From positions 1 to 47,655 of the forward strand of contig JBDRKL010000013.1 of assembly GCA_043814055.1 (NCBI GenBank): 47,655 bases of DNA, written 5' to 3'. The position numbers were made by a program, and so were the translations under genes. Shown one piece after another: positions 16,956-47,655 of the stretch. Origin of the DNA: an archaeon (GTDB lineage Archaea; Undinarchaeota; Undinarchaeia; Undinarchaeales; JBDRKL01). The notes beneath the pieces were generated by a model. The model ran no database searches. It had not been told where the DNA came from and saw nothing but the letters and a program-made list of their open reading frames with translations. Numbering within the stretch: position 1 is the stretch's first letter; each line of letters opens with the position of its first letter.

Positions 16956-17234
16956 CGAGCGCAGCGAGTTTTTGGTCAATCTTTTTTGACAAACCTCACA
17001 AATAAAAAGGTTGGTGGGAGGGAGGAGATCTCCGGCAAATTCCGGAGGAGAATTAGGCGGCATTCGACTACGTCGAAGCCTCTATGTCATTTAGCATACG
17101 AGCGATAGCGAGACTTTTTGGTCAAGCTTTTTCAAGCGAACAGAGTGAGCGCAGAAAAAGGTTGGTGGGAGGGAGGAGATCTCCGGCAAATTCCGGAGGA
17201 GAATTAGGCGGCATTCGGCTGCGCCGAAGCCACC
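16956..17234. repeat. 151-bp-period direct repeat downstream of tRNA-Pro, with tRNA-3'-end-like sequence and hairpins
   Basis: 17004-17066 identical to 17155-17217; minus strand reads ...CCCTCCC-A-CCA; cgagcg..gcgag-tttttggtcaa-ctttt..aaaaagg block also repeated. Confidence 0.85.
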
Positions 17235-17279
17235 TTGCCAAGCAATTTGATTGCCTTTGGTTATGTTTGTGAAGATGAG

Positions 17280-17377
17280 TGGGAGAGGCCGGATTTGAAC
17301 CGGCGACCACGGCGTATTCCTGTTTCTTTTTAAGAAACACCCGAACGCCGTATCATACCAAGCTAGACCACCCTCCC
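17280..17377 (-). tRNA. tRNA-Pro(CGG) with a 24-nt intron at 37/38 (17316-17339); CCA not encoded
   Basis: GGGAGGG/CTCTCCC acceptor, CGGCG-TT-CGG-G|intron|A-CGCCG anticodon arm, GCCGG-TTCAAAT-CCGGC T arm. Confidence 0.95.
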
Positions 17378-24763: not shown

Positions 24764-24838
24764 TCAAAGTCTCACCTCCTTCTCCAGCTTTGAAATGCAC
24801 ACGAAGCGAACCAAATTCATAGAGCTTTGTGTCGTCAT
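24764..24838 (-). other. 76-bp twin-hairpin module containing a 24-codon leader ORF (MTTQSSMNLVRFVCISKLEKEVRL) between pyrB and pyrI
   Basis: ATG overlaps the pyrB stop (ATGA) with SD ggaggt; ends TGA-A-ATG of pyrI; stem CATTTCAAAG/CTTTGAAATG. Confidence 0.65.
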
Positions 24839-25767
24839 TTTACCTCCACCCCCAGAACGCCTGCAAGCAGCGCCATCCTGACCGGAACTCCGTAGTATGC
24901 CTGCTGGAAATACCTTGCGAATTTCGTGTTGTCCACCTCGGAGTCAATTTCATAAACCCGCGGCAGAGGGTGCATCACAATCATGCCCTCCTTTGCCTTC
25001 TCCAGAAGTTCAATGTCAACCTTGTGTTCACTCTTAACTCGCTCATATTCCTCCGGCGCCGGGAACCTCTCTTTCTGAATTCTCGTGACATACAGCACAT
25101 CAACATCCCCTACAACATCGCTCAAACTTTCTTTCTCCTCAATTTCAACCTCAAACTTATGCTTCAGCGAAATCGTGAAGTCCCGTGGCATCTTCAATTC
25201 TTTGGGTGAGGCAAAAACCATGTCCGCCCCGAGCATGGCGAGCGCGGCGGACAGTGAGTGGGCAGTTCTTCCATACTTCAAGTCTCCTGTTATCGCAACT
25301 TTTAATCCCTTGATTTTGCCCTTCTCCCGTATCATTGTGTAAAGGTCAAGAAGCGTTTGCGTCGGGTGTGCGTGCGGCCCGTCTCCGCCGTTAAGTATCG
25401 GAACCTTTGAAACATCAGCCGCGTGCTTTGCCGACCCCTCAACAGGATGCCGCATCGCTATAACGTCGCAATACTGCTCAACAGTCCTTATCGTGTCTGC
25501 AAGATTCTCCCCCTTCTTCACAGAAGTTCCTGCAGTGTCAGAGAACCCAATCACAGAGCCTCCGAGCCTTAGCATAGCGCTCTCAAAGCTCAGCCTCGTC
25601 CTGGTGCTCGGCTCAAAAAACAGCGTTGCAAGAATCTTCCCCTTCAAAAGGTCTGATTTCCCGCTCTCAATAACTTTCTCGCACCTCTCGGCCTGTTTCA
25701 GGATATAGTCAATATCTTCCTTGGTCAGGTCTGTAAGCGTGAGTATGTCTTTGCCTTTAATGCTCAT
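24835..25767 (-). CDS. pyrB: Aspartate carbamoyltransferase catalytic chain
   Basis: FFEPSTRTRLSF, HPTQTLLD, GDLKYGRT, MHPLPR; start at ATG 25767 after SD gggaggt. Confidence 0.97.
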   Translation of the reverse strand: MSIKGKDILTLTDLTKEDIDYILKQAERCEKVIESGKSDLLKGKILATLFFEPSTRTRLSFESAMLRLGGSVIGFSDTAGTSVKKGENLADTIRTVEQYCDVIAMRHPVEGSAKHAADVSKVPILNGGDGPHAHPTQTLLDLYTMIREKGKIKGLKVAITGDLKYGRTAHSLSAALAMLGADMVFASPKELKMPRDFTISLKHKFEVEIEEKESLSDVVGDVDVLYVTRIQKERFPAPEEYERVKSEHKVDIELLEKAKEGMIVMHPLPRVYEIDSEVDNTKFARYFQQAYYGVPVRMALLAGVLGVEVK

Positions 25768-25887
25768 TCTAAACCTCCCTATAATTAGAAAGTTAATTTG
25801 ACTCAAGGCACTTAAAAAGGTTGCGGTGCCCCAATGAGAAACAATATATATTATGGGAAACACAGAATAATTATCTGATTATTTTTT

Positions 25888-26066
25888 CTAAAGTTTCCTT
25901 GCGAAAGTCAAAAATTCCACACAGACTTTGCTCTTTATGACTGTGTGTCTTCCTAACTTTTCTATACTTTTCGTGCAAAAGTTAAGAATTCCACACAGAC
26001 TTTGCAATTTGTGACTGCGGGTCTTTTTGACCTTTCTTACAATTTCCTTGCGAAGGTCAAAAATCC
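25888..26066 (-). repeat. Tandem 74-75-bp modules reiterating the trmI 3' end
   Basis: FLTFARKL*, FLTFARKV*, FLTFARKL* with stops at 26037, 25962, 25888; shared gcaaagtctgtgtggaatt. Confidence 0.85.
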
Positions 26067-26768
26067 AGTATGCCCAACAGGTATTGTAACAGGCCTTGAC
26101 CTGTCCTCTCCAATTTCCCAGTCCCTAATTATGCACTCTAGGGTCTCAACATCCCCAAAACCAATCAGGCCTTTCTTGAACTTGACCGCCTGCTCCACAG
26201 TCGGGCAGTAGCCAACAACGAAACCGCCGGGCTTCAGCGCCTTGTGCGCCTCCGGGAGCGCCTTCGCCGGCTCGCTCATATCCAGCATCACAACATCCAC
26301 ATCCTTCTCAGCAATCCCCTTTGTAATATCCTTGTTTTTAATATGGACGTTTTTGCACCCGCACTTCTCAATGTTCGCCTTCGCGACCTTGTAGAAATCC
26401 TCCCTCAGCTCGTAAGTGTAAAGCTCCTTGACCATCCCAGCCACTGCGATTGTGAACCCTGCGCTCCCTGTCCCTGCCTCAACAAGCACATCATCCTTTG
26501 TCAGCCCAACCTTCGCAGCAATAATCCCCACATCCTTCCACATCACAATCTGCGGCAGGCGCTTGATTTTTTTGAGCAAATCAGGAACCCGCGGCTCAAC
26601 CACGTTGAACTTCTCGCCCTTGTGCGTTGTGACTTTAATCCCAAACTTCTTCTTCGCCAGGAATCCAAGGTCAATAGTCCCATACTCTGTGCTGAACTTT
26701 GTATCATCCACAGTAACCAGGTAATTTTTCTTTCCAATGAGCAAAACCCTGTCCCCTTTTTTAATCAT
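26037..26768 (-). CDS. trmI: tRNA (adenine-N1)-methyltransferase TrmI/GCD14
   Basis: RLPQIV..KD, EAGTGSA, YELREDF, LDM..P, RP...VGHTGFLTFARK. Confidence 0.92.
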   Translation of the reverse strand: MIKKGDRVLLIGKKNYLVTVDDTKFSTEYGTIDLGFLAKKKFGIKVTTHKGEKFNVVEPRVPDLLKKIKRLPQIVMWKDVGIIAAKVGLTKDDVLVEAGTGSAGFTIAVAGMVKELYTYELREDFYKVAKANIEKCGCKNVHIKNKDITKGIAEKDVDVVMLDMSEPAKALPEAHKALKPGGFVVGYCPTVEQAVKFKKGLIGFGDVETLECIIRDWEIGEDRSRPVTIPVGHTGFLTFARKL

Positions 26769-26807
26769 ATTATTTAGATAGTGCAACGGGCATTATAATC
26801 CTTGCCC

Positions 26808-42056: not shown

Positions 42057-42154
42057 TTTCACAACCTTTTTAAACTCCGCCTGGCCACGGAGGTAGGCCG
42101 GGGGCATTCGCTCGTCGCGCTCGCGAAGCCCCTTTCACAACCTTTAAAAACCCC
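42057..42154 (+). repeat. 76-bp twin-hairpin module flanked by a duplicated promoter-like sequence
   Basis: tttcacaacctttttaaactcc (42057) and tttcacaacctttaaaaacccc (42133); CTCCG/CGGAG and GGGGC-A-TTCGC..GCGAA-GCCCC hairpins. Confidence 0.75.
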
Positions 42155-47426: not shown

Positions 47427-47655
47427 TGGTAGCGGGGGATGGACTCGGGAACGCAGAACCTAACGGTTCCGCACCTCCCAAGGTGGCTCTCCACTTTGTG
47501 AAGCCACTTTTGTGATTAGTAGCGGGGGATGGACTCGGGAACGCAGAACCTAACGGTTCCGCACCTCCCAAGGTGGCTCTCCACTTTGTGAAGCCACTTT
47601 TGTGATTAGTAGCGGGGGATGGACTCGGGAACGCAGAACCTAACGGTTCCGCACC
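47427..47655 (-). repeat. Perfect 90-bp tandem repeat (about 2.5 copies, runs off the window), each copy carrying an initiator tRNA-Met-like 3' end
   Basis: Units start at 47429, 47519, 47609; minus strand CGAGT-CCATC-CCCCGCT-A(CCA) followed by two hairpins. Confidence 0.88.

Follow-up and report, generated by a model that had tools for sequence, protein, structure and literature searches.

The integrases of archaeal viruses and plasmids duplicate the 3' ends of tRNA genes or protein genes as the attachment sites attL and attR. Short repeats of another kind, namely repetitive extragenic palindromes and bacterial interspersed mosaic elements (REP/BIME), miniature inverted-repeat transposable elements (MITEs), mitochondrial GC clusters and double-hairpin elements, are enzyme-less, palindromic, multi-copy and intergenic. 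The known families of the REP/MITE type make short fixed target duplications or none, and to our knowledge relic gene ends with silent divergence have not been described for any known family of hairpin repeats. In fungal mitochondria, C-terminal duplications are found beside mobile endonuclease open reading frames (ORFs), as reported for atp6, atp9, cox2 and nad3 of Glomus and, as cited there, for atp6 of Allomyces (PMC3630166). The same work describes 'gene hybrids' in which the inserted C-terminal piece is the working end and the native end lies unused downstream; DNA identity between the pieces is 64-81%, their proteins hardly differ, it is the native copy that lies nearest to the sister species, and the authors read the duplications as horizontal transfer (PMC3630166). 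In the Rhs and polymorphic toxins, new 3' ends are reported to displace old ones, which stay downstream as orphans (PMC2935791). Here we describe an archaeal gene, trmI, on a stretch of 47,655 nucleotides (nt; contig JBDRKL010000013.1, the whole of which is called the window below) that is followed by two spare copies of its own last codons. Our preferred account, to which we give a probability of roughly 0.45, is that small hairpin modules lacking any enzyme gene enter the ends of genes, duplicate a stretch that covers the stop codon, and spread between diverged lineages by homologous recombination through this duplication, a mechanism that we infer from sequence comparison. Searches of the open-access literature found no description of such relic gene ends in archaea and, among the papers listed, no mention of trmI in work on integrase attachment sites in archaea and nothing relevant on repeats or hairpins of Undinarchaeota.

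The source genome (G000; 0.98 megabases (Mb) in 14 contigs, 82% complete) belongs to the order of Ca. Naiadarchaeum limnaeum, placed in Undinarchaeota by the NCBI taxonomy; like it, most of the genomes compared below are metagenome assemblies. Its trmI encodes a tRNA m1A methyltransferase of the GCD14/TrmI family with 249 amino acids (26037-26786, minus strand, from the ORF list; Pfam PF08704, E 2.1e-22; orthologues in 39 of 41 genomes), and the active C-terminus reads GHTGFLTFARKL, then TAA (GFLTFARKL*). The sequence and a pattern scan give three ends on the minus strand. End A comprises the active last eight codons and TAA (FLTFARKL*; 26037-26063). End B, a relic reading FLTFARKV with TAG (25962-25988), lies in frame with trmI 75 nt downstream, and end C, a relic reading FLTFARKL with TAG (25888-25914), follows 74 nt past B and out of frame with it, so that the start-to-start spacings are 75 nt for A-B and 74 nt for B-C, with C 149 nt downstream of A. 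Between the ends stand two spacers of about 47 nt, each carrying the complementary arm of an 11-12 bp hairpin and a second inverted repeat: spacer A (25989-26036, minus strand), which holds the 3' arm of hairpin 1 and whose last 19 nt recur exactly in spacer B, and the homologous spacer B (25915-25961, minus strand), the 74-nt units being 80% alike. Tandem Repeats Finder reports the region as 25884-26064 with a period of 74, 2.4 copies and 76% matches. A degenerate pattern for seven of the end codons has three matches in the whole genome, all of them at trmI, and none for the reversed-pattern control; the trmI unit as such matches only itself in G000 and lacks the many dispersed copies that characterise MITEs and REPs.

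Only the first trmI end is read, and ends B and C are untranslated relics. That the relics are translated after all, through read-through, frameshifting or hopping or as small ORFs, is hardly credible. The in-frame position of end B behind the TAA would allow it, as would a 39-codon frame that is started by TTG and ends in end C. However, the repeat spacings at the various loci described below (74, 75, 80, 85, 89, 99, 113, 157 and 168 nt) fall in all three frames, and the residues before the relic motif are unrelated among end B, end C and the relic of Ca. Naiadarchaeum limnaeum (G001).

The copies have diverged, and they have done so almost silently. Per 27 bases, A and B differ at 9, A and C at 4 and B and C at 7, mostly at codon position 3, and the corresponding residue differences number 1 (L/V, the last residue), 0 and 1. 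For A-B, 7 of the 9 differing bases stand at position 3, in 7 of the 9 codons. We simulated a working copy that accepts silent changes only and a spare copy that drifts freely; the probability of obtaining as few residue changes as observed, or fewer, was 0.0000-0.0034 for A-B and 0.009-0.037 for A-C, and a fully neutral model gave values lower still. A plain tandem duplicate decaying neutrally would show codon-blind changes and a lost stop, and neither is seen at trmI. The earlier note on this DNA, made from the letters alone, had claimed that the spare ends are conserved at the protein level and that neutral decay of a tandem duplicate would not preserve codons. Both claims hold: the 9 and 4 base changes from A bring one conservative residue change in total, and simulated drift of a spare copy seldom yields so few (P 0.0000-0.037, depending on pair and model), so that neutral decay does not explain the copies. 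The P values for trmI carry an ascertainment bias, the locus having been chosen for its coding-like look, so that alone they overstate the case; the independent loci found later, genome-wide and in other genomes, lessen this concern and weigh more.

These numbers bear on a purely local origin, by slippage or by an insertion-linked tandem duplication of the gene end together with its hairpin, followed by divergence in place. The relics would then look coding-like since they are young, or since deletion between the repeats exposes a damaged relic to selection. We regard this reading as rather unlikely. The units do stand head to tail with homologous spacers, and the spacers are less diverged than the ends, down to the identical last 19 nt. 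The simulated P of 0.0000-0.0034 for A-B is hard to reconcile with it, and seven position-3 differences out of nine need a long time, in which a free copy would also gain residue or stop changes. Repeat-mediated deletion, and hence selection of this kind, would in our estimation be negligible after such divergence.

The genomes available for comparison, all from outside the family of G000, numbered 13 for the order and 17 for the phylum; the nearest TrmI is 61% identical to that of G000. Throughout the order TrmI keeps the C-terminal motif GHT[AG]FLTFARK[ILV], and FLTFARKV, the reading of end B, is the real TrmI C-terminus in G009, a congener of Ca. Naiadarchaeum limnaeum. Relic trmI ends also occur in two other families of the order. 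Ca. Naiadarchaeum limnaeum has an active end and, 80 nt downstream, a relic with five differences, all silent; G003 has an active end and a decayed relic, FLTSAKKI*, 75 nt downstream. End B of G000 differs from the active end of G001 at 4 of 27 bases (counted by eye), against 9 from its own A and 7 from its own C. Its Arg codon, CGA, accounts for 7% of the Arg codons in G000, yet it is used at this site by G001 and by G007. Where G001 and G009 are aligned (flanks about 84% identical), an 80-column gap corresponds to the active end plus spacer of G001, and the sole end of G009 aligns with the G001 relic with 5 mismatches, against 8 to the G001 active end (by eye). This comparison fits a newcomer end placed before the native one. 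The proposal of the earlier note that each copy was once the real gene end, and that the spare ends would match active ends of sister lineages, is accordingly borne out in part: the relics resemble the working ends of other lineages, as the cases of FLTFARKV, end B and the G009 end show, but G003 and G007 give a mixed picture and the order of the three ends in G000 does not come out of the comparison.

A protein-guided scan of metagenomes for close relatives gave 51 pattern matches, none of which was confirmed. The tandem-end pattern, which required five T at the start of the first end and so missed other codings, was run on one genome each for 185,579 species and recovered only Ca. Naiadarchaeum limnaeum and an unrelated Lachnospiraceae repeat; the same scan in metagenomes returned only a contig identical to G001. 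We rejected the match in Lachnospiraceae bacterium UBA1201 (L039, 1440-1660), which is an unrelated palindromic tandem repeat reading FLTFARK in one frame by chance.

For a genome-wide census of G000, the 400 nt behind each open frame of at least 80 amino acids were searched for the last eight residues of the frame (at least 6 of 8) directly before a stop. Matches were found for 12 of 3367 frames, while 20 tail-permuted controls gave 0-1 per round. Three of the twelve are perfect tandem repeats or repeat proteins, and nine are real gene ends: pheS, fttA/aCPSF1, a gene for a DUF63 protein, a fused primase, an ORF of 97 amino acids, a dph5-like methylase, a gene for a DUF357 protein, rpS10, and trmI itself. 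At the eight genes other than trmI the spacers measure 55-125 nt, and six of the eight fold with z scores of -2.3 to -5.4, several spacers having been cut too long in that fold. At six of these eight loci the spacers match other places in G000, and the inserts there are therefore dispersed hairpin elements; the duplicated flank is always the locus's own. A side observation concerns the end of the window, where 47429-47655 is a perfect tandem repeat with a period of 90 and 2.5 copies that runs to the contig end and may be an assembly effect; an 82-residue frame through it gave a false spare-end match in the census.

Over 86 codons, active and relic ends differ by 34 changed codons that are silent and 3 that alter the residue (L/I, R/K, L/V). 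This count leans towards silent changes, since residue identity decided where each repeat was taken to end; under that rule the dph5 pair was truncated, and it adds 2 residue changes in 7 codons. When the repeats are instead delimited at the base level, about 7 of some 33 changed codons (by eye) change the residue, against about 60% expected under free drift. In fttA of G000, a stretch of about 32 identical nt gives way to 28 nt with 8 silent changes. The commoner codon stands in the active copy in 19 and in the relic in 22 of the 41 silent differences, with no recoding bias, and such a split is what is expected for two working alleles. The length of the duplication varies from about 10 to 87 nt across loci and thus does not follow the fixed short target duplication of MITEs and REPs. 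We also record two features of the pairs as they stand. The stop codon differs in 8 of 10, four times with TGA in the active and TAA in the relic copy and four times with TAA in the active and TAG in the relic copy, never in reverse; and at pheS, fttA, the primase and trmI A-C the differences seem to crowd towards the stop-codon side, which is a by-eye impression only.

Under strict criteria, 2 of 23 tRNA genes in G000 also have duplicated 3' ends. Behind the tRNA-Pro gene (contig C12, 132988-133270) lie two further 3'-end copies of 20 and 10 nt, set apart by two hairpin elements that belong to different families. Imperfect direct repeats of 16-24 nt likewise flank elements in plain intergenic DNA. 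Within the window, a GC-rich double-hairpin element of a dispersed family (42057-42154) stands between 22-nt direct repeats that are 86% alike and look like a duplicated TATA-like stretch; its layout is the same as at the gene ends, and its position is intergenic. Separately, the window holds an intron-containing tRNA (17280-17377, minus strand; 47 bits in Rfam) that ARAGORN missed. Downstream of it, over 17004-17377, an 86-nt unit occurs twice (92% alike, spacing 151 nt), each unit having hairpin elements and an acceptor-like stretch ending in CCA, and these may be spare tRNA 3' ends.

Relic ends are confined neither to trmI nor to Undinarchaeota. A scan of 529 kilobases of the roughly 1-Mb genome G001 gave trmI, one further plausible case and one doubtful case. 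A first survey covered 30 trmI loci from 39 genomes, four of the loci without the motif, and found downstream trmI copies in two distant archaea as well; on the reverse strands two weak chance matches appeared at equal threshold. In a second, unrelated archaeal order, that of G030, relic trmI ends occur at 4 of 30 loci (G030, G083, G084 and G088, with G083 and G084 congeners and so not independent). In G030 (L025, 2217-2955) two trmI ends with three differences, all silent, enclose about 560 nt that carry a toxin-antitoxin-like pair (a DUF2683 ORF and a weak YhaV-like ORF), and the displaced old end is itself split by a hairpin-rich insert of about 96 nt, exactly before the codons for I-T-I-A-R. 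In G083 there are three to four ends, each some 20 codons long, the first relic being 10 bases off the active end, all of them third-position and silent (by eye), and G088 has three 242-nt units that cover about 57 codons. As a control gene in the same order, fttA shows relic ends at 1 of 30 loci: in G087 (L143, about 740-1500) a perfect 32-nt direct repeat, which includes the stop and 9 nt beyond, flanks a 655-nt insert with two small ORFs, one of them weakly ParD-like. Small ORFs between the ends were found only in G030, G084 and G087. In all, trmI is affected in at least six separate lineages. Relics decay in G003, as noted above, and also in G022 and G084, and therefore they are not kept for their own sake.

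The wider data also sharpen the comparison with a local origin. The perfect fttA repeat of G087 and the identical duplicated tRNA ends show that duplicates begin identical, as local duplication would have it, and in all six second-order cases the relic is closest to its own active copy. The decay of relics elsewhere fits poorly with such an origin, as do the identical and heavily recoded blocks that adjoin each other, for instance in fttA of G000; numerous near-silent differences beside identical blocks cannot come from a relic drifting in place. Spread by transfer between lineages, the account that we prefer, fits three facts together, namely the identical start, the eventual decay and the many near-purely silent differences.

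We next turn to the hairpins. In unit A, hairpin 1 (26024-26063, minus strand) pairs a 5' arm at 26053-26063, which holds the F-L-T-F codons, with a 3' arm at 26024-26034 over 11 nt at 100% complementarity; the A-R-K-L codons and the stop form its loop, and it folds with -13.2 kcal/mol and a z score of -3.8. In unit B (25950-25988, minus strand) the arms at 25977-25988 and 25950-25961 pair over 12 nt at 92%, the odd pair being G-U, while end C is without a matching downstream arm. The 206-nt region as a whole folds better than 200 of 200 shuffles (z -4.55). When four units are aligned (two of G000 and those of G001 and G003), a stem of 12 pairs emerges, 4 of which have changed on both sides, and pairing holds in 47 of 48 cells, whereas sliding the 3' partner by 1-3 columns pairs at most 75% of the cells. 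Coming from four sequences, this is suggestive, not proof, of compensatory covariation in hairpin 1. The observation in the earlier note that ends A and B pair with their own arms, and that the arms change together with the ends, was thereby confirmed. The active ends of G000, G001 and G003 all form a 12-bp stem with a loop of 15-16 nt that holds the stop (-10.7 to -13.2 kcal/mol, z -3.3 to -3.8). All 3 Naiadarchaeales genomes that have relic ends show such a strong hairpin, as against 0 of 11 single-end relatives, where z is no lower than -2.0. The hairpin therefore goes with the duplication and not with trmI as such.

Directly downstream lies pyrB, which encodes aspartate carbamoyltransferase (24835-25767, minus strand; Pfam), followed by pyrI, and the order trmI-pyrB is kept in G001, G009, G007 and the family f5. 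The region between trmI and pyrBI could be a cis-acting RNA or DNA device, such as stacked terminators, an insulator or an attenuator, with the codon pattern as a by-product. The strong fold of the 206 nt and the compensatory changes that keep hairpin 1 would suit such a device, and so would the situation in single-end relatives, where a TATA-like box of pyrB begins at most about 10 nt from the trmI stop (by eye), so that an insert could separate overlapping functions. Yet a device accounts for the pairing and leaves aside the three-base periodicity and the kept stops. End C lacks its partner arm, and no Rfam family matches: with Rfam 15 the best match over 25700-26200 reaches 21.6 bits, where the gathering score is 60. 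The same layout also stands before unrelated downstream genes and behind tRNA genes. We consider the device improbable as an explanation of the locus, although such a reading may hold for the hairpins without explaining the relic ends. A bulge-helix-bulge intron was considered too and dismissed; the fold contains no such motif, and with direct repeats at its two borders the central helix could not form.

The earlier note had further suggested that the module swaps in a replacement 3' end as integrative elements do. One classical feature is indeed present, since the 3' end of the target gene is directly repeated on both sides of the insert while the gene stays whole. The 82%-complete G000, on the other hand, gave no match to the tyrosine recombinase family PF00589 or the serine recombinase family PF00239, for which control genomes were positive, none to the Y1 transposase PF01797 or to Cas1 (PF01867), and no reverse transcriptase. 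An element body with genes between the ends is absent at trmI of G000, and no ORF fits the 47-nt spacers, hence no homing endonuclease ORF either; a whole-genome search for endonucleases was not made. The suggestion is not supported, on these grounds and in view of the breadth of the targets: eight other genes and tRNA genes are affected alike, and a single site-specific att system therefore cannot explain the pattern. As a side observation, the lack of any tyrosine-recombinase family match means that no XerA-like gene was found in G000, while 14 of 14 control genomes were positive. A clustered regularly interspaced short palindromic repeat (CRISPR) array was rejected, since its would-be spacers are mutually homologous and no Cas1 was found.

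A historical version of the same idea would see in the relics scars of integrase-bearing viruses or plasmids, whose attP carried a replacement trmI end and whose bodies were later deleted. The classical mark of such elements is a duplicated 3' end of a tRNA or protein gene, cargo does lie between the ends in G030 and G087, and trmI is affected in six or more lineages. We nevertheless hold this to be quite improbable. Apart from the missing recombinase, transposase and Cas1 matches, at least nine protein genes plus tRNA genes in one 1-Mb genome would need many specificities, and the inserts of 55-125 nt belong to dispersed hairpin families. It is also unlikely that three lineages reached an equal two-hairpin remnant of 74-80 nt by chance deletion. 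A search of viral contigs for the trmI end gave two pattern matches, both by chance and inside unrelated genes.

An assembly artefact, in which alleles of co-occurring strains were stacked in a metagenome-assembled genome, would also produce differences that resemble allelic silent variation, and both the 14-contig assembly and the 90-nt perfect repeat at the window end lend it some colour. This is very improbable in view of the G001 structure, which recurs base for base in a separate metagenome contig (L043), though the two assemblies may share a sample, and of the comparable structures in many assemblies, including the single-contig genome G022. Moreover, where a spacer meets the next end, no more than about 5-7 nt agree with the gene, which by our reasoning is too little for a loop in a k-mer graph.

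For the preferred reading we propose the following course. A module without an enzyme gene, usually two hairpins and occasionally a toxin-antitoxin pair, would insert near the 3' end of a gene and bring about a direct duplication of 10-90 nt of the target. The surviving insertions would be those whose duplication spans the stop codon, because only these leave the gene intact. The resulting unit of copy 1, module and copy 2 would be homologous on both sides to an uninterrupted gene end, so that ordinary homologous recombination, crossing over within the short duplicated arms, could carry it into diverged relatives or remove it again. After a transfer, copy 1 and the hairpins would represent the working end of the donor and copy 2 the former working end of the recipient, and the two copies would then differ by the silent differences between two working alleles. 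That each relic is a former working end would follow from transfer through the duplication. The third trmI end could have been added by a second event, or two such alleles could have undergone an unequal crossover. The stop-containing hairpin would travel with the module and be kept by selection, as the compensatory changes may indicate; it may serve RNA 3'-end formation or stability, or promote insertion.

Several findings weigh against this course of events. No donor was found, and for none of the six downstream copies of the second order is any of the 27 sampled active ends closer than that of its own genome (one tie). With the nearest TrmI only 61% identical to that of G000, the order of the three ends cannot be set, and end A resembles C more than B, where a simple series with the newest end first predicts otherwise. 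Polarity is shown by the pair of G001 and G009 only, and in G003 and G007 it is mixed: the active copy of G003 diverges from G007 to the background level and carries the ARKA extension specific to the genus, and the G003 relic has only its first 10 nt in common with G007. Reads (3 runs of one study) yielded only one fitting contig, of 218 nt within trmI (26271-26488), and none over the repeat. Arms of 20-60 nt with 15-30% divergence make for inefficient homologous recombination, and we know of no enzyme here for the step that makes a target duplication of 10-90 nt. Finally, the data do not show trmI to be a special hot spot, since in the second order its 4 of 30 loci do not differ significantly from the 1 of 30 seen at fttA.

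One may go further and speculate that these structures represent, in archaea with reduced genomes, a class of selfish DNA that has no enzyme of its own: homology-guided 'gene-end cassettes' that home by means of conserved last codons. In such a cassette a short double hairpin would sit between two copies of the last codons of a conserved gene, which would serve as its own recombination arms; it would home into the same gene of diverged lineages, stack the retired ends and perhaps supply the 3' hairpin of the gene. We offer this only tentatively, as a possible but doubtful extension.

If spread by transfer is correct, relic gene ends would be a readable record of DNA exchange between uncultured, host-dependent archaeal lineages. 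They would also point to DNA mobility without an encoded enzyme, with the duplicated end of a housekeeping gene as the homing arm, and would account for part of the hairpin-rich intergenic DNA in these genomes. Were the relics instead local duplicates kept clean by another force, that force would itself need explaining. For annotators, the data give a reason against calling the relics small genes or CRISPR-like arrays, and the layout may suggest a scar-tolerant design for insertion at gene ends.

How, then, does the locus stand beside the systems known from elsewhere? With att duplication it shares the targeting of a conserved gene 3' end, the replacement that keeps the gene whole and the partial copy on the far side. 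It differs in that no integrase and no element body were found in G000, in that the targets are many, and in the duplicated stretch of about 10-90 nt. The elements of the REP/MITE type are alike in that most G000 spacers belong to dispersed hairpin families, but the trmI spacer occurs at a single locus and the duplications in G000 are long and variable. The Rhs ends are reported to encode different toxin tips and so to diversify the protein (PMC2935791), whereas the ends in G000 all encode the same peptide. By our analysis the C-terminal duplication of fungal mitochondria is the closest known parallel: its layout, and its ends that diverge in DNA and are conserved in protein, recur in G000. 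In the fungal case, however, mobility is driven by an endonuclease gene of the LAGLIDADG or GIY-YIG type, about 0.4-1 kb long, that stands between the ends (PMC3630166). In G000 there are instead hairpin inserts of 47-125 nt without a gene, on an archaeal chromosome, with tRNA genes affected as well and up to three ends stacked behind one another.

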